Shown here one piece after another: positions 2,447 to 61,705 of a stretch of 64,000 bases of DNA (position 1 is its first letter; each line of letters begins with the position of its first letter). The position numbers were made by a program, and so were the translations under genes. The notes under the pieces are model-generated. The model made no database searches, was not told the DNA's origin, and saw nothing but the letters and a program-made list of their open reading frames with translations. The DNA is taken from sequence record NC_028957.1; one strand, given 5' to 3'. The DNA is from Escherichia phage vB_EcoM_VR26.

Positions 2447-2711
2447 TTCCAATCTCCTGCAATATTTTTCTCATACTACGCATGGTAGCTTTATGTTCTT
2501 GGTCATGGTATATCAATGCAAGGAGTGCTTCAATTCGCTCCTCTGGGACCTTCTGACCATCCTTTATGCTCATGGCTGATGTTCTTACAGCCAACAAGTA
2601 ACTTCGCTTCCTGTCGCTATCTGGGAGCTCCTGTACCTTACGAAGACCAGCTTCCATAATGCATCGCGCGACATTCTGCAGATTAACTAAACTTCCGTCA
2701 GACATAATCAT
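2412..2711 (-). CDS. hypothetical protein
   Basis: 99-aa ORF; GAGGTGA SD 5 nt upstream of ATG at 2711; preceded by terminator and TGTACA promoter. Confidence 0.5.
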   Translation of the reverse strand: MIMSDGSLVNLQNVARCIMEAGLRKVQELPDSDRKRSYLLAVRTSAMSIKDGQKVPEERIEALLALIYHDQEHKATMRSMRKILQEIGNDKLQSESGAV

Positions 2712-2728
2712 ATTTTCACCTCAAGGAC

Positions 2729-2757
2729 ATCTTAACACAATTTTTGTGGCTTGTACA
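2729..2757 (-). promoter_or_regulatory. early promoter (TGTACA -35-like, 17 nt, TAAGAT -10)
   Basis: Same element pair recurs at 12359..12387. Confidence 0.45.
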
Positions 2758-2761
2758 TAAT

Positions 2762-2784
2762 AAAAAAGGACCCGAAGGTCCTTT
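2762..2784 (-). terminator. rho-independent terminator (UUCG tetraloop)
   Basis: aggacc-cgaa-ggtcct hairpin flanked by A-run on plus strand, giving a U-tract on the minus-strand transcript. Confidence 0.55.
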
Positions 2785-2981
2785 GGTTACTCAACTTTAT
2801 AGACTTGCCCATACGCGGTATAGTATTCACCATCCCAGGTCTCACACATAATGGTGACAAAGGATGCAAACAAGGGTTTAGTATCGGCCCACAGATAACC
2901 GTATTCGCCATTTGACAACGTAACCCACCACTTTTTCATGGACTTCTCCTATAAGACGGGAGAATATTCTCCCACATCTAT

Positions 2982-4820
2982 TTATAGCGTCGCATTCATC
3001 CAATCTTTACGTGGTTTTGATTCTTTACCGAAAAGCATTTCAAACAGGTCTTTCCAGTTTTCAGGTAATTGAACAACTTCGAATACCGGTTCGAGTAATA
3101 CTCGTTTGTACTCGGAATCTTCCAGAGAACCCAGCCCCTTGATATATCTGATGGTATGCTTCGGAAGTTTATCCTTAGCTTCTTCATAATCGGGAAGAGA
3201 ATAGAACCATTCTTGTTTATCTTTGAGCTGTGCAATAATAACAGGAGTTTTCACAAAGCGAATACGTCCTTCATGGAACAGCTCCGGCCAGTTACTGAAA
3301 AATGCCAATAACGATGGATAGATACTACCGACACCATCCACATCCGCATCTGTCATGATAGCGATATTTCGGTAATTCATATTCTCGGCTGGTTGTCCAA
3401 TCGTTAATCCAGTAATCGCACACACATCAAAGGCTTCTGCGTTTTTCATAACTTCAACAGCTTTCAGACCCCATGTGTTTTTGAACTTACCGCGCAACGG
3501 ATAAGCGCCTTGCAATTCACGGTCACGAACCTTGATAAACGGACCCGTTGCAGAATCCCCTTCGGTCAGGAACAAAGTCGTTTCCAGCTTGTCATTGCCC
3601 CATTCGTTGGCCTTGATATGTTTCTGTACCTTGGCCTTTGAAGCTTTCTTATTCGCCTTAGTCTCTGCTGCTTTCTCTGCAGCCAATTTACGAGCCAATG
3701 CAGCTTCAATAATGGGCATCAGAATAGCTTCTGATTTTAACAACGAACCCGCCAACTTTTTGCCATCAACCTGGATATGTGATTTAATTTCGCCAGCCGG
3801 AGAAGTCAATCGTTCCTTGGTCTGGGAATCAAATCGCATATTTTTCATATTGCGAATAAACATCAACAACGTAATACATTCTTTAACGCGTGCTTTGGTT
3901 ACTTCAATTTTATACTTGCGTTTAATTGCTGGGATTAATACATCACACATTTCATCCATAACACATTCAATATGGTGACCACCATTTTTTGTGTGGATGT
4001 TGTTGACGTAAGTCAGATGTCTAAATCCATCAGGTGACCGACCGAGTGCAATTGAGCAATTATCTTGTTCCTGGATAATGATTTCATCATCATATTGTTT
4101 AGCAAACTTTTTAAACTGACCTTGTACCTTTTTACCATTGAATTTGAATTCAATATCAGGATAAACAACAGCAAGAGTCTGCAGACGGTCAAGAGTAATA
4201 TCCAGATAAATTTTATCAAAACTGTTCATTTCAAAATGGCTAAAGTCTGGAATAAACTCAACCTTGGTGCCATTGGATTTGGTCGGTTTGGTTTTCCATG
4301 ATACATTATCGGCGTTATTTGAACAACTTACACGAAGCTCATTTTTACCGTCAGATGTGGTCCCCGTAAAAAGGATTGAAAAAATATTAGTAAGACTTGA
4401 ACCCACACCATTTTGGCCACCGGTCACACGTTCTTTGTCATCACCGAAATTCCCGCCCGCTTTGGTTTTCGTCCATGCCGCTACGGGCCCAGGTAATTCT
4501 TCACCTTCTGGTGTTACGACAACAGCTTGTGGAATACCGCGGCCATTATCTTCAACAGTAACTTTGCTATCAGTCAGAGAAATATCAACAGAAATTTTAT
4601 TTGCAAATTTGAAATTTGTACGTATGGCTTCATCGACCGAGTTGTCAATAATCTCATCAATCAGTTTTAATACACCCGCCACATAAGATACTTTAGTATA
4701 TTCACCAAATAAAAATCTTTCGTATTCTTCATATGAAACACTTCCTATGTACATTCCCGGACGTTTCAAACAATGGTCTTTATCTGAAAGCAGTTCAATT
4801 TTATTTTCAATCATAATCAA
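2982..4820 (-). CDS. 39: DNA topoisomerase II large subunit (GyrB-like ATPase + Toprim), uninterrupted 39/60 form
   Basis: 612 aa; GHKL motifs IDNSVDE and VEDNGRGIP; Toprim motif LTEGDSA; no gene-60-type interruption. Confidence 0.9.
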   Translation of the reverse strand: MIMIENKIELLSDKDHCLKRPGMYIGSVSYEEYERFLFGEYTKVSYVAGVLKLIDEIIDNSVDEAIRTNFKFANKISVDISLTDSKVTVEDNGRGIPQAVVVTPEGEELPGPVAAWTKTKAGGNFGDDKERVTGGQNGVGSSLTNIFSILFTGTTSDGKNELRVSCSNNADNVSWKTKPTKSNGTKVEFIPDFSHFEMNSFDKIYLDITLDRLQTLAVVYPDIEFKFNGKKVQGQFKKFAKQYDDEIIIQEQDNCSIALGRSPDGFRHLTYVNNIHTKNGGHHIECVMDEMCDVLIPAIKRKYKIEVTKARVKECITLLMFIRNMKNMRFDSQTKERLTSPAGEIKSHIQVDGKKLAGSLLKSEAILMPIIEAALARKLAAEKAAETKANKKASKAKVQKHIKANEWGNDKLETTLFLTEGDSATGPFIKVRDRELQGAYPLRGKFKNTWGLKAVEVMKNAEAFDVCAITGLTIGQPAENMNYRNIAIMTDADVDGVGSIYPSLLAFFSNWPELFHEGRIRFVKTPVIIAQLKDKQEWFYSLPDYEEAKDKLPKHTIRYIKGLGSLEDSEYKRVLLEPVFEVVQLPENWKDLFEMLFGKESKPRKDWMNATL

Positions 4821-5579
4821 TTATTCCTTACTTTGTTTCAAGTATTCTATCGCAGTTTCTAATGAAGCAATATTGTCTTTAAACATTCCTAGTCCTATGT
4901 TGCATTTTGAACATAAAATACCTCGGACTTTACCAGTCGAGTGACAATGGTCTACATTGAACCAAGTGCTTTTTGATAAAGAAGTCGAATTGTTTGTTAG
5001 TTTTATTTTACAAATTTCGCAGTATGGTGTATCCTCAATTAACTTCAGAACATCCCGTCTTTTCATCTTTATAGAATGACTGTATGATAAGTCCAGCAAT
5101 TTGGTATCCCTTGCCTTTTGACAACAAGAATCCGAACAATATTTTTGAGTCCTATTTGTTGCAGTATACTCAATAGCACACACAGGACAAATACGCTCTT
5201 CCTTGAATATTCCACCACCCTGGCATTTAACTGAACAAAATTCATGGTAACCGGTCGCGAATGTATGATAATTAACAGGCTTACCACACTTACACAGGAC
5301 TTTCCCTTTTATATCATGTAAAATACGATAACAGACCTCGTTATACGGATGTTGTTCTCTTTTACCTCCCTGACATTCCAGTGCTTCTGCTCTAAAGGCA
5401 TTTGCTTCCTCAGGATGTTTTTCCCAAAATTTCTTTGCAAATTCTAAATCATTTTTAAATAAATTTCCGTTTAGTCTATTCGGATTTTTAGTTAAAAGAT
5501 TTTCTTCAATAAATTGTTTTAAGTTCATGGAGGTATTATAAGTCACATATTTTAAAGCAAAAAGGCCCGAAGGCCTCAT
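4821..5579 (-). CDS. Cys-rich zinc-finger protein with C-terminal endonuclease VII-like nuclease motif
   Basis: C-terminal VDHCHSTGKVRGILCSKCNIGLG parallels gp49 motif DHDHELNGPKAGKVRGLLCNLCNG; several CxxC pairs; AT-rich; start ambiguous (ATGA-coupled ATG at 5579 inside hairpin, or ATG at 5528). Confidence 0.6.
   Translation of the reverse strand: MRPSGLFALKYVTYNTSMNLKQFIEENLLTKNPNRLNGNLFKNDLEFAKKFWEKHPEEANAFRAEALECQGGKREQHPYNEVCYRILHDIKGKVLCKCGKPVNYHTFATGYHEFCSVKCQGGGIFKEERICPVCAIEYTATNRTQKYCSDSCCQKARDTKLLDLSYSHSIKMKRRDVLKLIEDTPYCEICKIKLTNNSTSLSKSTWFNVDHCHSTGKVRGILCSKCNIGLGMFKDNIASLETAIEYLKQSKE
5556..5577 (-). terminator. rho-independent terminator-like hairpin (UUCG tetraloop)
   Basis: aggcc-cgaa-ggcct with adjacent A-run; overlaps stop of 5576..5836 and first codons of 4821..5579. 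Confidence 0.45.
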
Positions 5580-5836
5580 TCAAATCGGATGGTTGAATTC
5601 TTGAACAACAATCCAGAACAAACAGTTCCTTCAACTTTCTTACCAGTTGGACCCACTGCTATAAAACCAGTATGCTGGAAATCATCTTTGGAGCATCCAA
5701 ACCAGTTATATCCGGTGATTTGGATTTGCTCATTGCCGTTTGCATCTAATACACGAACGGCATTATCTGCGTCAGTACAACCAGCCAATGAAACAGCCAA
5801 AACCAGCGCGGCAATAGAACGATTAATATATTTCAT
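5576..5836 (-). CDS. small lipoprotein
   Basis: 86 aa; signal peptide with lipobox LAGC; stop overlaps next start (ATGA). Confidence 0.6.
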   Translation of the reverse strand: MKYINRSIAALVLAVSLAGCTDADNAVRVLDANGNEQIQITGYNWFGCSKDDFQHTGFIAVGPTGKKVEGTVCSGLLFKNSTIRFE

Positions 5837-6023
5837 ATTTCCTCATTTAAGCAGGTCGTAAAACCCGCCATTAACATGTTTAGGGGCCGAGACTAGCCGA
5901 ACAGCCAGCCGATGGCAATCAGGGCAAACATCATTATCTCTTTCAGAGATTTTCTTGATTTTTTCGTATTCTTTTGCGCAGTCTTTGGATTGACATTTGT
6001 AATCATAAAGTGGCATCTCTAAA

Positions 6024-6383
6024 TTATTCCTTAAAGTGTGCTTTCAACATCTGGAAAACTGACCAGGCTTCTTCATTATTACTAATGGTGATTTTAGTCA
6101 ATGGGAATGCAGTGATTTCTGGAGCTTCAGTTTCTTCATCGCCGTCATCTTTTTCTTCTTCAAAGAAATGGAATTCCTCTTCTGTTATGAATAGACTCTC
6201 CATCCCGCCGGTTGACAATTCTATTTTATACACATCGCCACCTTCAATTTTGACTGGTCTAAACCCTTCGCCATTGATTATAGCATCAGCTATATTATCA
6301 TTATCCGTGCATAACAAACGGAATCTACTTTCAGAAGCATTGTCTTTAAAATAATACCATTTATCAGTTTCAAATTTAGACAT
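6024..6383 (-). CDS. hypothetical acidic protein
   Basis: ATG at 6381-6383 (MSKFETDKW) with AAGGAG SD; track start further upstream is an over-extension. Confidence 0.45.
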   Translation of the reverse strand: MSKFETDKWYYFKDNASESRFRLLCTDNDNIADAIINGEGFRPVKIEGGDVYKIELSTGGMESLFITEEEFHFFEEEKDDGDEETEAPEITAFPLTKITISNNEEAWSVFQMLKAHFKE

Positions 6384-6600
6384 TATAAGTCTCCTTCCAA
6401 AAATCTGTACCATCTTCTGACTCTTCGCGGAACAAAGCATAGCTTGGTAGCTGTGCGTCTTTATTTTCATACACATAAATGATATCAGTTGTGCAAAGAA
6501 ACTCATTGATGTTTTTCTTAACAATCACTTTATCACTTTCAGCGGTGTCCCAAAACTCTTCAGCAGTCAGGGAAGTGGTCACACAATCTTCATTGAACAT
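6376..6600 (-). CDS. hypothetical protein
   Basis: 74-aa ORF with ATG start; promoter-like leader with inverted repeat upstream. Confidence 0.45.
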   Translation of the reverse strand: MFNEDCVTTSLTAEEFWDTAESDKVIVKKNINEFLCTTDIIYVYENKDAQLPSYALFREESEDGTDFWKETYNV

Positions 6601-15131: not shown

Positions 15132-15818
15132 TTAAATGCCTCTAAATTCATATATTAAAAGTTTAAGTGCACTAGGGGTTGTTTCGTATTTCCCTTTAAG
15201 TGCTTTAACCACGGCAGTTGCCCCACCGGGTTTACCTAATGAAAGCCAAATCTGATAGATTTCACTTTTCAACGGTTCATGCCAATGGGCAGCGGTTCTT
15301 TGAGCTTTAGATGTGGCTTCTGATACGATTTTATTTCCACCATTTGCGTAAAACTCATTCATTGCTTCTGATTGTCTGGATTTGCGTTCAGGCCTATTTT
15401 GAGCGGTGCTTTGAGCTTCCTTCATTTTGGCTTTGGTTTTTGGTTTGTTTAAACGCAATGTTTGGGCCAACTTCATTTCGTCCGTCCATTCGTATCCTTC
15501 ACCACCCTGTCCACCGGGTAAAATATTAATACAATTTGAACCATGTTTAGAATTTAATAATGATATTATATATCTTTCATGTTCAAACATCATTTCCCGA
15601 TTCTGGTGACCTACAAACCAACGAATTTTATATTTGACCCCATATTTTTTATAGATATTCCAAAGTATTTTTCCAGAGCCAGGATATCGGTCTTTATTTG
15701 GGTCTAATACATTGGTCTCATGTTTACCACCATACCAAAAAACGCCTTTCGGCGTTTTAACTTTAATTATATAAGTTCTATAAAATTTTGCCTTAATAGC
15801 CATGGTCCTGGCGCTCAA
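15132..15818 (-). CDS. GIY-YIG homing endonuclease (SegF-like)
   Basis: 228 aa; N-terminal YIIKVKTPKGVFWYGGKH GIY-YIG-like; basic C-terminus; lies between soc and 56 where T4 has segF. Confidence 0.6.
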   Translation of the reverse strand: MSARTMAIKAKFYRTYIIKVKTPKGVFWYGGKHETNVLDPNKDRYPGSGKILWNIYKKYGVKYKIRWFVGHQNREMMFEHERYIISLLNSKHGSNCINILPGGQGGEGYEWTDEMKLAQTLRLNKPKTKAKMKEAQSTAQNRPERKSRQSEAMNEFYANGGNKIVSEATSKAQRTAAHWHEPLKSEIYQIWLSLGKPGGATAVVKALKGKYETTPSALKLLIYEFRGI

Positions 15819-19224: not shown

Positions 19225-19791
19225 TTATTTTTCGTTTAAACGAATTTTTTGTTGATGTTGCTTTGCTGCAATAATATATTTTGCTTTTTCTAATGCCAAT
19301 TGTTTTTCAGTTCCATCCATCACCATAAAGTAAATCTGCCCAGCAACAGTTTGTGGAATTGTGCTTGGTAAATTATCTAAAAAAACTTTTATATTTTTTT
19401 GATGAATTTCATAAGCATTAAAACATTTTTTATAATTTATATAATAAGGGTGTACACCCCAAAATAATATTTTGTTTCCATGTATTGTGTGTTGCTTCAT
19501 TTCAACAGAAACTGGATAATCATTAATTATTATCCGTTTAGATACCAATTTATCAAATGAATATTCCCATTGTTCGGATGTAATTATATTTCCATTTAAT
19601 TTTACAATTTTATCACTTTTTTCAACTATATAATTACCACACACATATTTTGAGTAACCAGGCCTTGAAAATTTTATTGTTTCTTCCGACAATAATTCTG
19701 CTTTTTGCATATAACTATCATATGTACTAATAGAATATGCAGGTTTGGCAAGGCCGCACAATGCAAAAGCAATAATGAATAATTTTTTCAT
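19225..19791 (-). CDS. secreted protein, unknown function
   Basis: 188 aa; N-terminal signal peptide MKKLFIIAFALCGLAKPAYS; markedly AT-rich. Confidence 0.5.
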   Translation of the reverse strand: MKKLFIIAFALCGLAKPAYSISTYDSYMQKAELLSEETIKFSRPGYSKYVCGNYIVEKSDKIVKLNGNIITSEQWEYSFDKLVSKRIIINDYPVSVEMKQHTIHGNKILFWGVHPYYINYKKCFNAYEIHQKNIKVFLDNLPSTIPQTVAGQIYFMVMDGTEKQLALEKAKYIIAAKQHQQKIRLNEK

Positions 19792-27434: not shown

Positions 27435-27487
27435 TTGGTTTCCTTTATAGTCGAGTGATTGACTTTTGTTTGTATGGCTATTATACT

Positions 27488-27510
27488 ACAAAAGGGACCG
27501 AAGTCCCTTA
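27488..27510 (-). terminator. hairpin between regA and gene 43 (terminator or translational operator)
   Basis: aagggac-cgaa-gtccctt; weak U-tract; about 55 nt upstream of gene 43 ATG. Confidence 0.4.
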
Positions 27511-27520
27511 ACGCTTTAAA

Positions 27521-28469: not shown

Positions 28470-29419
28470 TTCATTTCCCCAGCCAGTTGAGCAAACAAGT
28501 AGGTCAGGTGAACTTCGGTGTTCGCCGCCAGCCCGTGATACTGATTGTTCTCACCCACAATTTCATACATACGGATGATGCTTGCACCGGTCAGTTTGCC
28601 GTACATTTCATCAGCGAGCTTGGCAATGAAGTTTGAATAATCATTTGCAAATTTCGGCGCCAGACCACGAAGAACTTTAAAGTTACGGTCTTTAAGGGCA
28701 TCAATCACATCATCGATTGGAGTGCGATTATTTGTCACGATACTTAAGATACCAGAATCGATAACACCCTTCGCAGAGTAACGGTCAAGCTCGTTAATTG
28801 TCTTACGCAAGTCCGGGAAGTTATGCTTAACCAGGGCAGCAACAACTTTCAGGTCTTCGATTTCAACACCTTCGTTCTTACAGATAGCCACTGAACGATG
28901 AATCATCTGCTTAAGCATGGAGGTACGGTCTTCATCGGTTGACTCACCGAATTTAATCACACGACAACGGGACTGTAATGGAGTGATGATACCATCGATG
29001 TTGTTCGCGGTCATAATGATAGAACAGTTACTTGAATAAGCTTCCATGAAACTACGAAGATGTCGCTGGGATTCCGCCAGACCCGCCCGGTCAAACTCAT
29101 CGATAACGATTACCTTACGGCGCCCTTCGATTGATTTGGATGATGCAAAGCGAGTCAATTCATTACGCACAAAGTCAATTCGGCAATCGGAGCCGTTAAC
29201 AAACAGCATATCAGAATTCGTATCCGCGCACATAGCTTTCGCAACTGTTGTCTTACCAGTGCCAGGGGAACTACTGACCAGAATCAAGTTAGGAATCAAA
29301 CCTTTTTTAACAATCGCCTCTAACGTTTCTTTATCATGAGCCGGTAGAATACACTCTGATAATGTACCTGGGCGGTATTTTTGTTCCCACATGAATTCTT
29401 TGTCATTAACCGTTAACAT
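28460..29419 (-). CDS. 44: clamp loader ATPase subunit
   Basis: 319 aa; Walker A SPGTGKTT; close to recalled T4 gp44. Confidence 0.9.
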   Translation of the reverse strand: MLTVNDKEFMWEQKYRPGTLSECILPAHDKETLEAIVKKGLIPNLILVSSSPGTGKTTVAKAMCADTNSDMLFVNGSDCRIDFVRNELTRFASSKSIEGRRKVIVIDEFDRAGLAESQRHLRSFMEAYSSNCSIIMTANNIDGIITPLQSRCRVIKFGESTDEDRTSMLKQMIHRSVAICKNEGVEIEDLKVVAALVKHNFPDLRKTINELDRYSAKGVIDSGILSIVTNNRTPIDDVIDALKDRNFKVLRGLAPKFANDYSNFIAKLADEMYGKLTGASIIRMYEIVGENNQYHGLAANTEVHLTYLFAQLAGEMKWL

Positions 29420-29452
29420 ATATTTTCCTCATTAGTTTCTACTCAATACTCC

Positions 29453-29470
29453 ATGGGGCCGAAGCCCCAT
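29453..29470 (-). promoter_or_regulatory. stable hairpin between genes 45 and 44 without U-tract
   Basis: atggggc-cgaa-gccccat 4 nt after gene 45 stop, followed by leader/SD of gene 44. Confidence 0.4.
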
Positions 29471-29473
29471 TTA

Positions 29474-30169
29474 TTAATCTTGGAATTCGTGGCTAGAGCC
29501 TTGTTCCATTGCAATCACATAACTTGCTTGTGTGCCTTCAAACTTCGTAGCAAATTTATCATCTTTCGCCCAAAGCATAACACGGTAATCAGCCGGAATC
29601 ATTTTCATGTTCAGTTTGTTAATGATAAATTTAAACGCTGCATCGCCTTCGTAATCACCACACACTAGGGAATACAATGGGCGCGCTAATTCTTTATCTT
29701 CGAGCTGGTTATAACCATGGATAACAATCTTACCATCTTTGTTGGTGATAGCAAAAGTATCCAGAGACAAACCGCCAGCCACACGCAGAAGCTGCTGCAG
29801 GTCACTACCTTTCAGGTCAAAGATAACCTTAGCTACCGGGAAAGGAATCTTCTTAGCAGGGAACACGATAGTGCTCGGGTCAGCTGCAGGCCAGTGAATC
29901 GTTGAACGTTGGTCTTTGATAATGATGTTTGATGCATCTTCAGCCAGAGATACTTCAGCTTGGTCAGTTACCAGGCCCAGGATACTTAAGAAGCCGTTCA
30001 GGTCATAAATTGCAGCTTCAAAGTCAATTGTATCATTGATTTCAGATTCACCATATGACGCTCCAGTTACGGAACGAGTCAGGATGGTATTACCTGGTTT
30101 AAGCATAATGCCAGAGTAGATGGAGGTGAAGTTTTTCAGAACTGCGATGGTGTCACGACTAAATTTCAT
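29474..30169 (-). CDS. 45: sliding clamp
   Basis: 231 aa; collinear with recalled T4 gp45. Confidence 0.9.
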   Translation of the reverse strand: MKFSRDTIAVLKNFTSIYSGIMLKPGNTILTRSVTGASYGESEINDTIDFEAAIYDLNGFLSILGLVTDQAEVSLAEDASNIIIKDQRSTIHWPAADPSTIVFPAKKIPFPVAKVIFDLKGSDLQQLLRVAGGLSLDTFAITNKDGKIVIHGYNQLEDKELARPLYSLVCGDYEGDAAFKFIINKLNMKMIPADYRVMLWAKDDKFATKFEGTQASYVIAMEQGSSHEFQD

Positions 30170-31053
30170 TTCATTTTCCTATTAACATAATAATTTGACC
30201 AGGACCGGATTGCACCCTGATAATTTTCATCATTAAACCCATGTTCAATGGCGTGTTTTCTAAACGTAATATACCCCGGTTGTCCTAAAGCATTCCACAA
30301 TGTTTTAAGTTCATCTTCATACTGCAACCAGGTTCCCCTTGCTTTGGATTTCCTAAATTTTTCTTTAAATTCAGGACTAGCATTTCTTTCAGTTGCTCGT
30401 TTTGAAGCCTTTATTCTATTATCTGAATTATTCCAATATTCAGTAATTGATTTTAAATATTTTTCGTATACTTCAGATGTATTCATTATAGCTTTGAATT
30501 TTAAAGCATACTCGGCATCTTTATAACGATTTTTGACTTCAATAGACCTTGCTTGTCGAGCTTCGGCAGTCCAATATTCTTTTTGAAAGTCTTTAATTGC
30601 TTGAATGTGCTTATCCGAAATTGAGCAATCTTTACGAACACCAACATAATCAGATGTAAGTTCGGATGGATGCAATTTAACAACTTTACCTGTTTTCAAG
30701 TTTCGGTATGGAGCATATCCAGGAGCATCATACCGGCTTTGGTCGTGAGCATACGTTTTATTAAAGTACTTCTCATTGGTTACAGCTTTAACTGACATTT
30801 GAAAAATATTTTCTATTTTTCTTGGGTCCTGCTTTGTTTCCCCAATGATAGTAACGATATAGTCGCCGCTATCAATCAATTCATTATACAACTTAGTGTA
30901 TTTTGAATTCGGCGAACCTGTATAAATTTTATTATTTTTGTCGAGAATATTTTGACCGTTAAATGTCGCATCAACCTTTGAACCAATATAATAACAAGGG
31001 AATTCGTTATTTTGTTCCCTTGTTATAAAGGTTATTTTATAAATCAAATTCAC
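30166..31053 (-). CDS. GIY-YIG homing endonuclease (Seg-like)
   Basis: 295 aa; N-terminal IYKITFI...YYIGS GIY-YIG motif; AT-rich; stop overlaps gene 45 start (ATGA). Confidence 0.6.
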   Translation of the reverse strand: MNLIYKITFITREQNNEFPCYYIGSKVDATFNGQNILDKNNKIYTGSPNSKYTKLYNELIDSGDYIVTIIGETKQDPRKIENIFQMSVKAVTNEKYFNKTYAHDQSRYDAPGYAPYRNLKTGKVVKLHPSELTSDYVGVRKDCSISDKHIQAIKDFQKEYWTAEARQARSIEVKNRYKDAEYALKFKAIMNTSEVYEKYLKSITEYWNNSDNRIKASKRATERNASPEFKEKFRKSKARGTWLQYEDELKTLWNALGQPGYITFRKHAIEHGFNDENYQGAIRSWSNYYVNRKMK

Positions 31054-31475
31054 GCAACAACTGCCATTTGTTTGCGGATAGCTTCCGGAAGAGATTCAAT
31101 ATACTCTGGAAGTTGCGCAGCAATAATAGAACCAGCTTGGACCAGGTGGTCATCGAAGTCAACACAGTAATCATCTTCGAGACGTTCGGAGCCGTCACGG
31201 TCGATAACCAGTTTAGCACCAGCTGCCAGAGATTCGGTGTAATGACGTTGCATCAGTTCAATCCACTTATCAGATACATCAGTATCGATAACACCATACA
31301 GCATAAATTTAACTTCTTGAGGAAGTGATTTCAGACGGGTAGCCGATACTTCATCACATGCCAGGACCCAGGATTTACGGATGCGGTTTTGGTTATGTGG
31401 GTTAGCGTCAGTGCGGATGGTTTTAACTTGGATATCTTTAGCAGTTACGTTGTTCATAATATTCTCTCTATTCAA
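31050..31475 (-). CDS. hypothetical protein (rpbA position)
   Basis: 141-aa ORF between 45 and 46; synteny only. Confidence 0.4.
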   Translation of the reverse strand: MNRENIMNNVTAKDIQVKTIRTDANPHNQNRIRKSWVLACDEVSATRLKSLPQEVKFMLYGVIDTDVSDKWIELMQRHYTESLAAGAKLVIDRDGSERLEDDYCVDFDDHLVQAGSIIAAQLPEYIESLPEAIRKQMAVVA

Positions 31476-31480
31476 TTCAA

Positions 31481-31732
31481 TTAATCAAAGTATTCATATG
31501 CGAACCAGGCTTTGTGTCTGTTCGCGATTATTTTAACATATTCTTCACCGAAAGCGTTTTGCAAGTCACGTTCAGTAACTAGGTGTTCATCTTTCGAAAA
31601 GGTATTAACTAACACATATCGTTTAATTTCGGGGACAGCTAGTAAATGCTGCCCGGTTAAGAAGTCAGCCATAGCAGCCTCTATTATAACATCCTTGTTT
31701 AAAGCATTATTCCATAACAGTGAATCGACCAA
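31481..31732 (-). CDS. hypothetical protein
   Basis: 83-aa ORF. Confidence 0.4.
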   Translation of the reverse strand: MVDSLLWNNALNKDVIIEAAMADFLTGQHLLAVPEIKRYVLVNTFSKDEHLVTERDLQNAFGEEYVKIIANRHKAWFAYEYFD

Positions 31733-33401
31733 CTTTTTTCATCTGGAGATGTTGCCCGTATGCTTCCGGGTCATGGTCTCGGTGACTGATAATAAAGATG
31801 TTGGTGTCTTCCAATTTGTTCAGGATGGTAGCAATTGCTTTAACACCCTCTACATCAGTAGCTGAATCGAAAACTTCGTCCAGAATCAATGTGTTGATAT
31901 TGACACCAGATACTTTTGCAGCAATATCACGCCATGTAAACAGCAATGCAATATCGATACGAGCTTTTTCACCCTGGCTAAATGATGCATAGCTAAAGTC
32001 TTCACGCCCACGAGATTTAATCGTTTCGTTGAATTCTTCATCAAGCGTAAAACTATAATCAGCTTCCATAACTTTCAGATAAGCATTAATTTGCTTATTA
32101 AAGATAGGAATATATTTCTTAATAATCGCGCCTTTGATTCCAGAATCTTTCAACATATCCGTTAAGATACCACGTTGATATTTTTCCATAACAAGGTTTG
32201 ATTTCTGTTTGACTATTTTATCAAGCTGGTCTTGAAGCGTTTTAATATCATCGGCATGGTCAATGAATTCAGACTTAGCTTGTTCAATTAACGTCTTAAC
32301 CTTTTTAGCTTTATCCACAGTCTGGATTAACGTTTGTTTCTTAGTTTGAATCTCTTGAGCTATTGTACGTTGGTTTTGTCTTGCTTCAGCGTACGCATCA
32401 AATCGTTCCTGAATGGAGGCCTGGAGAGCTTTATGGCTATCAGACTCACGATTATACTCTTCAATCTTTGTCTCAATCCTGGGGACTATGGAGTCTCCTG
32501 GCGACAATTGACTCAAACACGTTTGGCAACAACCGCCTTTCTCGTACAAACCGATTACCTTACGGAAGCTATCGATTTTCGATTTAATCAGGAACGATTC
32601 TTGCTTGACTTTCGTCAGTTCCTGTTCAGGGTCTTCACCCAAAATAATCTCGGTCAATCTTGTCGTTGCTTCATCAATCGTTGATTTGATATCACGAGCT
32701 TCTGAAGCCAAATCATCATACATCGTTTGCAGTCGTAGCAGATTATCACCGGATAATTTTTTCTGCTTTTCAACGTTGTCCTGGTAGATTTTAATCTGTT
32801 GCACAACACCATCATGCTGAACGTCAATCACCTGGATTTGACTGTTGACTTCACGGATAAGAGATTTGTTGAGCTTATCCATATCAGCCAGTACAGAAAC
32901 CTCTAGCAGGTCTTCGACGAGTTTTCTTCTTGCAGGAGTGGATAGGCCCATGAAAGGGGTATATCCAGCTGTGCCGAGTACGACAATCTGTTTGAAACTG
33001 GCGTATGACATTCCGATAAGCTGTTCAAATTCTGCTTGGAAGTCTTTACTGCTGGCAGATTCATCAAGACGTTCACCGCCACAAGAGATTTCAAAAACAT
33101 TGGGTTTTTGCCCACGTTTGATATAGTATTCTTTGCCATCATATTCCATCCACAATTCAACGAGCATATCTTTTTTGTTGCTCGAGTTAATCAACTGCCC
33201 TTTCTTAACATCACGAAAAGGCTTACCAAACAATGCAAATGTAACGGCTTCAAGGAAGGTTGATTTACCTGCACCGTTCTTACCGGTCACCAGAGTTTTC
33301 TGGACCTTATCGAGTTGAACCGTAATTGCTTGTGCTCCAACTGACATAATATTTTTATAGATAACTTTCTTTAGCTTAAAAGTCTTCATCGTAATAAGCA
33401 T
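31707..33401 (-). CDS. 46: recombination nuclease ATPase subunit (Rad50/SbcC-like)
   Basis: 564 aa; Walker A GKNGAGKST; collinear with recalled T4 gp46. Confidence 0.9.
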   Translation of the reverse strand: MLITMKTFKLKKVIYKNIMSVGAQAITVQLDKVQKTLVTGKNGAGKSTFLEAVTFALFGKPFRDVKKGQLINSSNKKDMLVELWMEYDGKEYYIKRGQKPNVFEISCGGERLDESASSKDFQAEFEQLIGMSYASFKQIVVLGTAGYTPFMGLSTPARRKLVEDLLEVSVLADMDKLNKSLIREVNSQIQVIDVQHDGVVQQIKIYQDNVEKQKKLSGDNLLRLQTMYDDLASEARDIKSTIDEATTRLTEIILGEDPEQELTKVKQESFLIKSKIDSFRKVIGLYEKGGCCQTCLSQLSPGDSIVPRIETKIEEYNRESDSHKALQASIQERFDAYAEARQNQRTIAQEIQTKKQTLIQTVDKAKKVKTLIEQAKSEFIDHADDIKTLQDQLDKIVKQKSNLVMEKYQRGILTDMLKDSGIKGAIIKKYIPIFNKQINAYLKVMEADYSFTLDEEFNETIKSRGREDFSYASFSQGEKARIDIALLFTWRDIAAKVSGVNINTLILDEVFDSATDVEGVKAIATILNKLEDTNIFIISHRDHDPEAYGQHLQMKKVGRFTVME

Positions 33402-46687: not shown

Positions 46688-47698
46688 TTAACGATAATAG
46701 GAATTGTGGTTGTCAAGATATACCTCTTCAACAAACTTGTCCCAGAACTTCATGTCTACCTTATCAGGCATACCGTTCTTGGCCGCCCAGACGGCATTGG
46801 TTTCGACTTCATCGACGATTGCTTCAAGTTCAGCTTGTACATCTTTAAAAGCGTGTAGGCCTTGTTTGATTTCAAGGATAAATGGAGCCGTACGTAAAGG
46901 ATATTGAAGGTCACCGGTCATATAAATTTCCTTCAGCTGATATCCAGCTCGATAAGCATGACTCAATGCTTTCCAGTCAATACCTTCATTCGCTTCGGCC
47001 TTACGAGCGCGTTCACCATATTCGGCATCAAGTTTATTCAGAGATTGCTTAAGCTCGATTAATGACAAAGTAGTTTGGTATTTGCGACCGAGAACAGTAT
47101 AAAACGTTTGAGGACCGGTTTTCTCATGGTTATGGAACACCCATTCGCAAAATTCGTTCTCTGGAAGACGATGCTTAATATCTTCAACTTTAGTACGACG
47201 TTGTTTAGTCGTACCATCTTCTTGGTAGTCAACCCACTGTTCAGGAATCTGGTTAACAATTGCCAGTACACCACGTAAAGCAGCCAGTCTAGAACCTTTA
47301 ACACCATATTTTGAAGCTTGCTTACGGACATACCCCAAATATGCTTTCATGTTGGTCGTATAGAACCGTGAACGGTTGTCTTGGATAAATTTCCATACAT
47401 CTGGTAAATCGGATTTGACTACCAGGTTAGCCGGAGTGTGAATCATGTCCAGAGCAACAGTTTCACCTTCAGCCGCCAGTTTAAAGAAATATTTCAGGCT
47501 ATAAAGCTCGTGGTCAACATCGTCTTTAGTGTTTTTGGATGCCGTGTTATTCGTGTTCAAGTTTGTATGATTCATAGCCGTACCTAACAGAATGTCACGT
47601 GGGTGTGGAACAAAGATTTCCTTAAAATCGACATCAGATTCAGGAGTACTTGTTCCATAAAGATGTGAGCCAAAATAGCCCTTCATAACTGTTCTCAT
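46688..47698 (-). CDS. nucleotidyltransferase-fold protein (Pol-beta superfamily)
   Basis: 336 aa; N-terminal FGSHLYGTSTPESDVDF fits the G[SG]-x9-13-D-x-[DE] pattern; later acidic VALDMIH. Confidence 0.5.
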   Translation of the reverse strand: MRTVMKGYFGSHLYGTSTPESDVDFKEIFVPHPRDILLGTAMNHTNLNTNNTASKNTKDDVDHELYSLKYFFKLAAEGETVALDMIHTPANLVVKSDLPDVWKFIQDNRSRFYTTNMKAYLGYVRKQASKYGVKGSRLAALRGVLAIVNQIPEQWVDYQEDGTTKQRRTKVEDIKHRLPENEFCEWVFHNHEKTGPQTFYTVLGRKYQTTLSLIELKQSLNKLDAEYGERARKAEANEGIDWKALSHAYRAGYQLKEIYMTGDLQYPLRTAPFILEIKQGLHAFKDVQAELEAIVDEVETNAVWAAKNGMPDKVDMKFWDKFVEEVYLDNHNSYYR

Positions 47699-48501
47699 TA
47701 TTCGCCTCTTTCATAGTCTTCAATAAATTGCATAATTAAACGTTGATAGTTAGATTTACGGTATCCTAATTTACTAATATGAGTACCAAAAGCTCCACGC
47801 TTAGGCCTATTTAATTTAACCCATAAAGAATAAAGCAAATCATAATCTTGCCAATGTTTTCCTATTCTTTGCTTTGCTTTAGAAGCGTCGGACTGCCTCT
47901 TTTTAGTCTCTGGATTATTTAGAGATTTCTTAACAGCATTTGAATGTCTTTCTCTAACACCCGGGCGTTTAAATGCTTCTTTAACAGATTTAGAAATTTT
48001 CTCTTTAACTTCAGGACGGTTTTGAGCTTCTATTTGAGCCGCCGACATTTTATCTTTTATTTCGGATAGACTCATAGTTATAGAACGTTTATTTCTATAC
48101 TCTTTGGTCTTCCATAGTTCTTTCATCGTATTTGAATGAATTTCTGAAAATTTTTCTCTAACTAATTGGTAGCCCCTAGAAGTTAGTTTAAGATTTCTTC
48201 CTAGAGAATCCTCGCCGAAGTTATAAAATGACCACCAGGCATAAATTAATCCAGAAGAATCAGAATGAATTCTGGCTAGAAGCCAGTGTGCTATAAAATG
48301 TTCTCTGGCCGTCAGCAGAACTAAATTATTAGGTTCATCACTCCCACCAATACATGATGGGAGTATATGATGGGACTCTGTATAAAAATTTAATTTGGAT
48401 TTGTCTAATCCTCTGAATTTACCTCTTTGGATTAGACTATCATAAAGCTTTGTATAATTCATTATTATTTTGTTTTGTCCTCGAAGTGAATTACCGGACA
48501 C
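47698..48501 (-). CDS. HNH homing endonuclease (Mob-like)
   Basis: 267 aa; HNH core ESHHILPSCIGGSDEPNNLVLLTAREHFIAH; repeated basic C-terminal modules; AT-rich. Confidence 0.7.
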   Translation of the reverse strand: MSGNSLRGQNKIIMNYTKLYDSLIQRGKFRGLDKSKLNFYTESHHILPSCIGGSDEPNNLVLLTAREHFIAHWLLARIHSDSSGLIYAWWSFYNFGEDSLGRNLKLTSRGYQLVREKFSEIHSNTMKELWKTKEYRNKRSITMSLSEIKDKMSAAQIEAQNRPEVKEKISKSVKEAFKRPGVRERHSNAVKKSLNNPETKKRQSDASKAKQRIGKHWQDYDLLYSLWVKLNRPKRGAFGTHISKLGYRKSNYQRLIMQFIEDYERGE

Positions 48502-60092: not shown

Positions 60093-60743
60093 TTATTTTT
60101 GTCTATTATAATATTTCAATTCAGCGGCGCGACGTCTTTCCATTGCTTCGTCACGAGAATCACCATAGTAAAGTTGGATTTCTTTATGATTAACAGTAAT
60201 ATATGATATCCATTTACCTCTGTCTTTTCTAAACTTGACACCTGTAATTGGACCAGGTGAATCTTTTCGGGTATCCTGGTCAAATGACTGTATTGATGAT
60301 GAAGCCCATTCGCAAGTTTCTTTACTGTATAGCTTACATGAATTTATCCGATTAATGCTTGTACCTGCTGGACGAATACCCATATCTTCAACAAAATTCA
60401 AATAACCAGTTTTTCCCTTTGGTAGCCACCTATCACATATTTGTACACCAGCGCCACCATACTGCTTCCAACGATGATGGTTAGGATTTGTACACCTTTC
60501 AATCATGGCAGCATACGATGAATATGTAGGTTTGTCAGAAATAAATGAATAATGATATTTCTGACAGCCGCATGATTTGGTTTTACCTGATTTTATACGA
60601 GCGGCGGCTGTGACAAACTCTTTACCACAATGACAAATACAATTCCATTTAGTAGAAACTCCAGCGGTTTTATATGCTACCGAAACAAATTTGATTCCAT
60701 TAATAATTTTACCAGTCAAATCTTCTAATGGTCTTCCCATCAT
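60093..60743 (-). CDS. zinc-finger/AP2-like DNA-binding protein (homing-endonuclease-like)
   Basis: 216 aa; N-terminal CICHCG...CGC; central NPNHHRWKQYGGAGVQICDRW; C-terminal AP2-like segment. Confidence 0.45.
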   Translation of the reverse strand: MMGRPLEDLTGKIINGIKFVSVAYKTAGVSTKWNCICHCGKEFVTAAARIKSGKTKSCGCQKYHYSFISDKPTYSSYAAMIERCTNPNHHRWKQYGGAGVQICDRWLPKGKTGYLNFVEDMGIRPAGTSINRINSCKLYSKETCEWASSSIQSFDQDTRKDSPGPITGVKFRKDRGKWISYITVNHKEIQLYYGDSRDEAMERRRAAELKYYNRQK

Positions 60744-61705
60744 TCATCCTTTTTGAATGGTTTAATTAAATGCTGGTTAGCCTTAAAACGTTTAATATAA
60801 TCGTCATGACCTAAAGCATTATACATACTTATAATTTTACCATAATTTTCATATGCGAAGGTGCGGAACCATCCAGAAGTAATGGAGGTGCAGACTTTTT
60901 CCAGAGCCATATGGAAGCTATGGCTTGCAGGGATAATAAAATCATTAGGAACCTGTGAACGCTCCAGAGCGAGTACACATGCTTCTTCATAAACCCCTGC
61001 CAGTTTAATAACATCAGGGAGTGCTTCAAATTTTTCGCGTGAGGTCATGACTTCTGAATCATCCTTCATATAGAACTTATATGCGGGCTTATCAGCAAGC
61101 GCCACGGCCTCGTGGATGGAGTCATGGTCAAGGGTATAGATTGTATCATTAAAGAAAGTTTTCTTGCCCACGTCTAGTTTAGGGTGGCTATATGACAGTG
61201 TTTCTGCCTGGCGTTGTTGCATAATTTTCTGCAGTTCATCATTAAGAACAACACCCTTATTGCGAAGGTAATTAATATGACTCATGGTCTTCAGGAAGAA
61301 TGGATTGTTCTTCAGGTAACGATGAGATAATTTAATTGCCAGACAAATATCAGGAGTCGCCCAGTAAAAACCTGTAAGACGGTCCTTTTTAATATGATTT
61401 TCAGCATATTTCAGGAGACGATAACTTGAGGTGAAATCTTCGTCTTGAAGCTCGCCAGTAATTTCTCGTACGTTGGTCAGGGCACGGACAATATAAGCTT
61501 CAAAATAGGTTTCTTTGCCATTGTACATACATTTAAAAGCTTGGACATCAGGGTTATCCACAGGAACATGAGCACCGAACATACGTGCTTTAAAGTGGTT
61601 CCATGAGCCTTGGTCGGCAATGAAATCCCAATCAGAGTTTTCAATTTTCTGACTTTCAATCAGACCAGCGTTATGTAATGCACGAGAACCAATAACTAAC
61701 ATCAT
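60740..61705 (-). CDS. hypothetical protein
   Basis: 321-aa ORF; no recognised motif. Confidence 0.45.
   Translation of the reverse strand: MMLVIGSRALHNAGLIESQKIENSDWDFIADQGSWNHFKARMFGAHVPVDNPDVQAFKCMYNGKETYFEAYIVRALTNVREITGELQDEDFTSSYRLLKYAENHIKKDRLTGFYWATPDICLAIKLSHRYLKNNPFFLKTMSHINYLRNKGVVLNDELQKIMQQRQAETLSYSHPKLDVGKKTFFNDTIYTLDHDSIHEAVALADKPAYKFYMKDDSEVMTSREKFEALPDVIKLAGVYEEACVLALERSQVPNDFIIPASHSFHMALEKVCTSITSGWFRTFAYENYGKIISMYNALGHDDYIKRFKANQHLIKPFKKDE

Follow-up and report, generated by a model that had tools for sequence, protein, structure and literature searches.

The window analyzed here, that is, the whole 64,000-nucleotide (nt) stretch of Escherichia phage vB_EcoM_VR26 (NC_028957.1), carries at the junction between rpbA and the sliding-clamp gene 45 an open reading frame (ORF) that is probably a free-standing homing-endonuclease gene of the SegG type and is called seg below. 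The source phage is VR7-like and belongs to the genus Gaprivervirus (a megablast search with positions 29000-32000 gave 98% identity to VR7 and also matched VR25, VR20, SP18, and others). All of the genes discussed lie on the minus strand of the window, and the local order on that strand, following the VR7 annotation, is 46, 45.2, rpbA, 45, 44, 62, regA, and 43. The coordinates of the features are given in Table 1.

An earlier note on this DNA, made from the sequence alone, had reported the seg ORF and its ATGA overlap with gene 45. Both are present, the minus strand reading ATGA from 30169 to 30166. The note missed a second overlap, GTGA, at the rpbA end. No Shine-Dalgarno sequence was found upstream of the GTG of seg; this start is supported by the homologs, which begin with MNL[IV]Y and have an ATG at the equivalent position. 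On the rpbA side, the Tequatrovirus homologs show an ATGA overlap, and in Mosigvirus the ATG lies 5 nt past the rpbA stop. It should be noted that codons 10-21 of seg contain an inverted repeat whose 12-bp arms match perfectly and are separated by 12 nt (30991-31002 and 31015-31026; z of the 5' RNA fold, about -2.6 to -2.8). No hairpin is present in the Mosigvirus homolog, and that of Tequatrovirus is another one, of 10 bp, located a few codons closer to the start. This hairpin, the register of which is not conserved among the genera, was set aside.

Table 1 Features of the rpbA-gene 45 region and the other endonuclease-like genes of the window
Feature	Position in window	Strand	Remarks
seg-like gene, 295 amino acids (aa)	30166..31053	-	Predicted SegG-type GIY-YIG free-standing homing-endonuclease gene; fills the rpbA|45 junction exactly
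Putative GIY-YIG catalytic domain, ~aa 1-105	30739..31053	-	Key residues Y5, Y22-I23-G24, K26, Y44, S47, E81, N98
C-terminal helical region, aa 146-295	30169..30618	-	Presumed DNA-binding; residues 247-278 (30220-30315) resemble the T4 SegA C-terminus
ATGA overlap	30166..30169	-	seg TGA (30168-30166) with gene 45 ATG (30169-30167); kept in all homologs examined
GTGA overlap	31050..31053	-	seg GTG (31053-31051) with rpbA TGA (31052-31050)
Substitution cluster, gene 45 codons 3-7	30149..30161	-	Proposed immunity variant; relatives TTC TCT AAA GAC ACT, here TTT AGT CGT GAC ACC
Gene 45 Shine-Dalgarno AGGA	30177..30180	-	In seg codons N-R-K, 7 nt to ATG; AATAGGAAA conserved in seg-carrying genomes of three genera
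T4 middle-promoter-like motif in seg	30485..30508	-	MotA box TGCTTTA, 11 nt, TATAAT; 341 nt upstream of gene 45
Second middle-promoter-like motif in seg	30268..30292	-	TGCTTTA, 12 nt, TATATT; 125 nt upstream of gene 45
Gene 45 (sliding clamp)	29474..30169	-	231 aa; 99.6% aa identity to VR7 gp45
rpbA (RNA polymerase binding protein)	31050..31475	-	141 aa; 100% aa identity to VR7 RpbA
Endonuclease VII/HNH-type gene	4821..~5528 (listed to 5579)	-	Upstream of gene 39; PF02945
segF homolog (GIY-YIG)	15132..15803 (listed to 15818)	-	Downstream of gene 56; annotated segF in VR7
mobD homolog (HNH)	47698..48462 (listed to 48501)	-	Between mobD.1 and nrdC.11; T4 locus identical
Cys-cluster/AP2-like gene	60093..60743	-	PHROG 374 'HNH endonuclease', E 1.8e-59; CxCxC...CGC cluster, AP2-like C-terminus

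That seg is an inserted gene, as had been proposed, is supported by a comparison of insertion sites: where seg stands in the window, VR7, VR20, and VR25 (spacer TAATTAATTTTGATTTGAATAAAAGGTAATTAAATG) and about 30 other Gaprivervirus records have an rpbA-45 spacer of 28-30 bp, which is replaced here by 888 bp. Among 32 close Gaprivervirus records, seg was found in TH15 only (protein 98.6% identical), and one short Logan contig encodes, in the same surroundings, a protein identical to that of the window. A tblastn search retrieved 36 records with full-length homologs; where annotated, the match lay at or overlapped gene 45 and usually rpbA as well. The homologs were limited to three genera and occupy the same rpbA|45 junction in each: Gaprivervirus (TH15), Mosigvirus (10 records, 61-63% aa identity), and Tequatrovirus (25 of the roughly 505 records whose flanks are closely similar, 54-56% aa identity). 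A search of IMG/VR with gp45 returned nine loci, none of them with seg, and a pattern search of the same database for the 3' end of seg returned none. Searches of the literature turned up no report of a homing endonuclease between rpbA and gene 45.

The seg gene is under purifying selection, with ratios of nonsynonymous to synonymous substitution rates (dN/dS) of 0.07 against TH15, 0.12-0.24 within Tequatrovirus, and 0.17-0.22 between genera. The figures for divergence between genera are 55-63% for seg, ~60% for gp45, and 49-66% for RpbA, and this parallel argues for a long residence within each genus and against a recent transfer between genera. Split or truncated copies occur in AV111, G2285, JM17, FL18, AV115, ESh24, and EC121: a frameshift interrupts seg in AV111 and in several further Mosigvirus records, and the EC121 copy lacks the first 17 codons. 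Such copies would represent the decay stages expected in the life cycle of a homing endonuclease.

The motifs quoted in the earlier note (IYKITF...YYIGS) are found in the Seg protein, with the IY at residues 4-5 and the YIG at residues 22-24. Its GIY-YIG assignment was borne out by a match to T4 SegG and by a profile alignment, even though Pfam and NCBIfam are silent (no match to a GIY-YIG family such as PF01541 or PF19835, not even at an E-value of 10). In a BLASTP comparison with all the Seg, Mob, and I-Tev proteins of the T4 record, Seg residues 1-102 matched SegG residues 1-100 (34% identity, E 5e-12) and residues 247-278 matched the C-terminus of SegA (residues 176-207; 38% identity, E 6e-5). 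PHROG 7504 ('homing endonuclease') matches residues 1-103. Aligned by hhalign with a profile of I-TevI, I-TevII, and SegA-F, the Seg family profile scored a probability of 95.9% (E 5.5e-9), with the YIG of Seg paired with that of I-TevI and SegA-F, and E81 and N98 with E75 and N90 of I-TevI. An exhaustive HMMER search with residues 1-145 yielded 128 cluster representatives, whose consensus SegG fits. Over the 99 representatives in which conservation was scored, Y22, G24, K26, Y44, S47, and N98 were invariant, while Y5, P19, I23, S25, E81, and F97 were conserved in at least 90%. The Seg protein has the alpha/beta fold of a GIY-YIG catalytic domain and, judged by its sequence, its nuclease domain is a divergent one of the SegG type.

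NUMOD3 motifs occur in 73 of these 99 relatives, and matches to PF19835 (SegE_GIY-YIG; best E 3e-4) in 6. A phmmer search of the Seg protein against the PDB sequences returned nothing, and the sole match of a profile search against the PDB was the NUMOD3-like linker of I-TevI, a linker present in the relatives and not detected by Pfam in Seg. A first AlphaFold2 model built from six sequences reached a mean predicted local distance difference test (pLDDT) score of 68, and Foldseek found nothing with it; it was replaced by a model based on the 99-sequence alignment (pLDDT 89), which is all-helical from residue 147, mostly with pLDDT >80. The C-terminal 150 residues lack the NUMOD3 and zinc-finger modules found in most relatives, and we infer that this helical region binds DNA.

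A further candidate trace of seg lies in gene 45 itself. Compared with VR7, gene 45 of the window has 20 mismatches in 696 nt, of which 7 fall within the 13 nt at 30149-30161, a clustering reached in 1 of 200000 permutations (p ~5e-6). The seg-less genomes of four phage groups retain ATG AAA YTS TCT AAA GAY ACT, whereas the alleles of seg carriers read TTT AGT CGT GAC ACC in Gaprivervirus, CTT AGC CGT GAA ACC GTA AAT in Mosigvirus, and TTA TCT AAA GAC in Tequatrovirus. Fixed differences, defined as the gene 45 alignment columns at which seg-carrying and seg-less genomes share no base, were found at nt 9, 10, 11, 13, 14, 15, and 21 in Gaprivervirus, at nt 9-15, 18, 21, 22, 24-26, 42, 45, and 57 in Mosigvirus, and at nt 7, 9, and 18 in Tequatrovirus. 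All of them lie within the first 57 nt, mostly at nt 7-26, and no others were found elsewhere in gene 45 in the three genera, nor in rpbA for Gaprivervirus. The 48-nt allele of seg carriers is confined to seg-carrying records (1/1 in Gaprivervirus, 10/10 in Mosigvirus, and 20/20 in Tequatrovirus, exact or near-exact), and the 49 nearest seg-less Tequatrovirus records differ from it at exactly nt 7, 9, and 18.

This pattern is what would be expected if Seg recognizes the conserved start of gene 45 together with the spacer that its insertion destroys, carriers having been recoded to resist. Most likely, nt 7-21 of gene 45 (ATGAAAYTSTCTAAAGAYACT) form part of the target; they are conserved in the seg-less genomes of the four phage groups. 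As a separate observation, the seg-less Tequatroviruses of the slur03 type (49 records) share ACA CTG AAT ATT TTG (nt 19-33) with the seg carriers and keep CTG...GAT at nt 7-18; this stretch could be a recombinant allele or the footprint of a past conversion. A pattern search of IMG/VR for the putatively immune allele gave a single match, which was unrelated and discarded as due to chance.

We also examined how seg and gene 45 might be expressed. Gene 45 had been described as translationally coupled to seg. The overlap is real, but the dependence had been deduced from it, and gene 45 keeps its own Shine-Dalgarno sequence. Since this conserved AGGA lies 7 nt before the ATG, gene 45 need not depend on the translation of seg. 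All homologs share the peptide encoded there, SNYYxNRKxK at the C-terminus of Seg. The seg gene itself is the more plausible case of coupling, since its GTG overlaps the rpbA stop and is preceded by no Shine-Dalgarno sequence. We rejected a promoter of its own for seg, as neither a T4 late promoter (TATAAATA) nor an excess of sigma-70-like sites was found there. Most likely, seg would be transcribed together with rpbA, and ribosomes that terminate on rpbA would weakly re-initiate there. In phage RB69, RegA protects the stretch from the Shine-Dalgarno sequence to the AUG of gene 45 (PMC3014915); in the window, this stretch is derived from seg.

The combination of a MotA box and a -10 element (TGCTTNA-N10-14-TANNNT) occurs 13 times in the window, compared with 5.1 +/- 2.2 expected, and 11 of these sites are on the coding strand. 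Two lie inside seg, and both have counterparts at matching positions in the Mosigvirus homolog. At the position of the second, TGCTT...TATA(A/T)T is found in all three genera, the motif being recognizable in Tequatrovirus, a conservation that may equally reflect constraint on the protein. The rpbA-45 spacer of T4 holds such a middle promoter, and this spacer is replaced by seg in the seg-carrying Tequatroviruses. Promoter-less seg cassettes, and promoters of an essential downstream gene embedded in segG (gene 32), have been described by Edgell et al. 2010 (PMC2988022).

Taken together, these data suggest, with a probability that we would put at roughly 70%, that seg is a SegG-type free-standing homing-endonuclease gene, encoding an N-terminal GIY-YIG domain and a C-terminal helical region, and that it forms a promoter-less cassette replacing the rpbA-45 spacer exactly. 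The gene would be co-transcribed with rpbA-45-44-62, as suggested by the lack of a promoter signal of its own, and would be translated at a low level from its GUG by re-initiation at the rpbA stop. In a mixed infection with a relative that lacks seg, Seg would then cut the relative's genome at the rpbA|45 junction or close to it, as the association between seg and the gene 45 alleles suggests. Recombinational repair would transfer seg, along with a short flanking stretch, to the broken genome, an intronless homing analogous to that of SegF and SegG. Carriers would be immune, having lost the spacer and acquired altered codons 3-7 in gene 45; the association is observed, and the protective function is our proposal. 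Expression of gene 45 would be kept by the Shine-Dalgarno sequence in the last seg codons and possibly by the MotA-type motifs embedded in seg, for which the same arrangement of T4 segG and gene 32 offers a precedent. More tentatively, and with rather low odds in our estimation, the seg lineage may be an old resident that specializes in gene 45, has diverged with three genera of T4-like phages at one junction and at low frequency, and possibly also serves as a weapon in mixed infections. Were this so, a rival whose gene 45 is cut at its start would be unable to replicate or to transcribe its late genes.

Several observations weigh against reading seg as a mobile endonuclease gene that targets gene 45. 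Pfam does not recognize the GIY-YIG domain. No Arg is found at the Seg position aligned with R27 of I-TevI, and T4 SegA-E likewise lack one in the same alignment; the YIG is followed by an invariant K26, and R12 is common in the Seg family. The gene is at low frequency in every genus and has diverged in parallel with host genes, so that it is not sweeping. Finally, characterized Seg enzymes often cut hundreds of bp away from their own gene (PMC2988022), and a substitution cluster near the junction is therefore no proof of the cut position; the cluster could alternatively be a hitch-hiking donor tract or a gene 45 start adapted to its new upstream context. We regard it as possible, although not favored, that codons 3-7 reflect such a co-converted tract, or compensation in translation initiation or mRNA structure, and have no part in immunity, the cut being made elsewhere, for example hundreds of bp off as with SegG. 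Indeed, the changes fall within the ribosome footprint of gene 45, and descent of the cassette with its flank could explain why AGY CGT ... ACC is common to the alleles of seg-carrying Gaprivervirus and Mosigvirus. The Tequatrovirus allele, however, was changed differently (CTG to TTA and GAT to GAC) in the same 12-nt stretch, and no other fixed difference accompanies seg in gene 45 or, for Gaprivervirus, in rpbA. Moreover, a carrier must resist, and the cluster is the only candidate change; co-conversion and immunity are compatible.

The expression signals embedded in seg might instead mean that the cassette has been domesticated, which we consider unlikely. Seg would then no longer be a mobile nuclease, and the ORF would be kept for the ribosome-binding site of gene 45, maybe for promoters, and for the displaced RegA operator region, its deletion being harmful; the Seg protein could even act as a DNA-binding regulator. 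In line with this, seg encloses the 26 nt that precede the gene 45 ATG as well as the Shine-Dalgarno sequence of that gene, the genera share the peptide SNYYxNRKxK, seg contains motifs of the MotA type, and RegA of RB69 protects the Shine-Dalgarno-to-AUG region of gene 45 (PMC3014915). The divergence of seg (55-63%) parallel to that of gp45 and RpbA also suggests a long vertical residence. Yet the catalytic-core residues Y5, Y22, G24, E81, and N98 are conserved across the 99 relatives and present here, purifying selection acts on the whole ORF and not on its 3' end alone, and seg-less relatives express gene 45 without seg. The patchiness (at most 5% of the sampled Tequatrovirus and Gaprivervirus records) and the degenerate copies fit a selfish element better. 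The frameshifted and truncated homologs listed above, like the GTG start without a Shine-Dalgarno sequence, could also be taken to mean that seg is a decaying, functionless relic. This is highly improbable for the copy in the window, which is full length (295 aa, like the intact homologs), has all the conserved residues and a dN/dS of 0.07 against TH15, and gives a confident AlphaFold2 model (pLDDT 89).

Among known systems, T4 SegG (gp32.1, between genes 59 and 32) has a nuclease domain homologous to that of Seg (34% over 100 aa), with the common pattern MN[IL]VY..F..R......PxYYIGSK...Y.xS...E...YFN. Like seg, its gene directly precedes a gene that is essential for replication and reads in the same direction, has no promoter signal of its own, and holds expression signals of the downstream gene inside its coding sequence (PMC2988022). 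SegG differs in length (210 aa, versus 295 for Seg), in its unrelated C-terminal half (no similarity past Seg residue 102), and in its locus and presumed target (59|32 and gene 32, versus rpbA|45 and gene 45). The activity of SegG and its marker exclusion are experimental findings, whereas Seg is a predicted enzyme. Compared with the catalytic domain of I-TevI (PDB 1LN0), the spacing from GIY to YIG is ~5 residues longer in Seg, which is not intron-encoded, has no identified R27 equivalent, and has a domain to which PF01541 is blind. The likeness to T4 SegA is limited to 32 residues of the C-terminal helical segment, the nuclease domains belonging to different Seg subgroups. The homologs at rpbA|45 in the Tequatroviruses GiZh, PaulHMueller/Bas45, and SHBML-50-1, the Mosigviruses FL31 and AV109, and the Gaprivervirus TH15 resemble seg in length, junction, overlaps with rpbA and gene 45, and C-terminal peptide; they differ in starting with ATG instead of GTG, and their immunity-type substitutions in gene 45 vary by genus. 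They are annotated as hypothetical protein, putative homing endonuclease, or '24.6 kDa protein'.

Seg is thus an uncharacterized member of a well-known class, the free-standing T4-type homing endonucleases, and its family does not change the understanding of phage homing endonucleases. It does offer a specific and testable prediction of the target, placed in the first ~20 nt of gene 45 of T4-like phages without seg, with putative natural resistant alleles available for comparison in three genera, as well as a clear case of a mobile gene absorbing the translation signals of an essential gene. The family also matters for annotation because Pfam misses it and at least one RefSeq genome, that of GiZh (NC_054903; GiZh locus 2501-3388), leaves the homolog unannotated. 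In Lv5cm, the homolog is labeled '24.6 kDa protein in Gp32-Gp59 intergenic region', which is the old name of SegG.

The neighborhood of gene 45 is an insertion hot spot, because other Gapriverviruses carry different homing-endonuclease genes within 2 kb: in phages of the VR20 type, a seg-like gene of PHROG 314 separates 44 from 45 (VR20 locus, 3421-4011), and TH15 has a PHROG 655 HNH gene on the opposite strand between 45.2 and 46 (TH15 locus, 5711-6430). Two side observations concern other parts of the window. The small ORF of ~210 bp that lies between the DNA polymerase gene and regA in VR7 (VR7ORF053c), VR20, and TH15 is missing from the window (~27435-27520, between gene 43 and regA). An ORF of 188 aa at 19225-19791 (minus) has the minimum GC content of the window (27%) and no PHROG match.

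The earlier note had listed four further endonuclease-like genes. All four are indeed endonuclease-like and on the minus strand, but three of the listed 5' ends appear over-extended. The SegF-like label agrees with 65% identity to T4 SegF and a position beside gene 56, the HNH Mob-like label with 79% identity to T4 MobD at the nrdC.11|mobD.1 locus, and the endonuclease VII-like label with a match to PF02945 (E 5e-18). The zinc-finger/AP2-like label fits the sequence motifs of the gene at 60 kb, which nevertheless has no match in Pfam, NCBIfam, or PDB. Far from being universal at their sites, all five endonuclease-like genes, seg included, are patchy among relatives: segF was found, among close relatives, in VR7 and P479 only, mobD in TH40 and E33 only, the Cys-cluster/AP2-like gene in VR7 and phage 212 only, and the endonuclease VII-type gene in RZ, VR7, and apparently TH15 (whose record ends inside the region), being absent from VR20, VR25, and others. 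They are indeed AT-rich, as reported, but to a modest degree (33-37% GC, compared with 39.2 +/- 3.4% as the mean over genes; z -0.6 to -1.8).

The endonuclease VII-type gene probably starts at ~5528, because the first 17 listed codons (5529-5579, minus) look like a terminator followed by a promoter: a GC-rich hairpin and a T run (GGCCTTCGGGCCTTTTT), then TGCTTTA-N12-TATAAT. Other MotA-type motifs on the minus strand lie at 4844-4869 and 47813-47837, inside the 3' parts of the endonuclease VII-like gene and mobD, respectively, and at 60794-60818, just upstream of the endonuclease-like gene at 60 kb.

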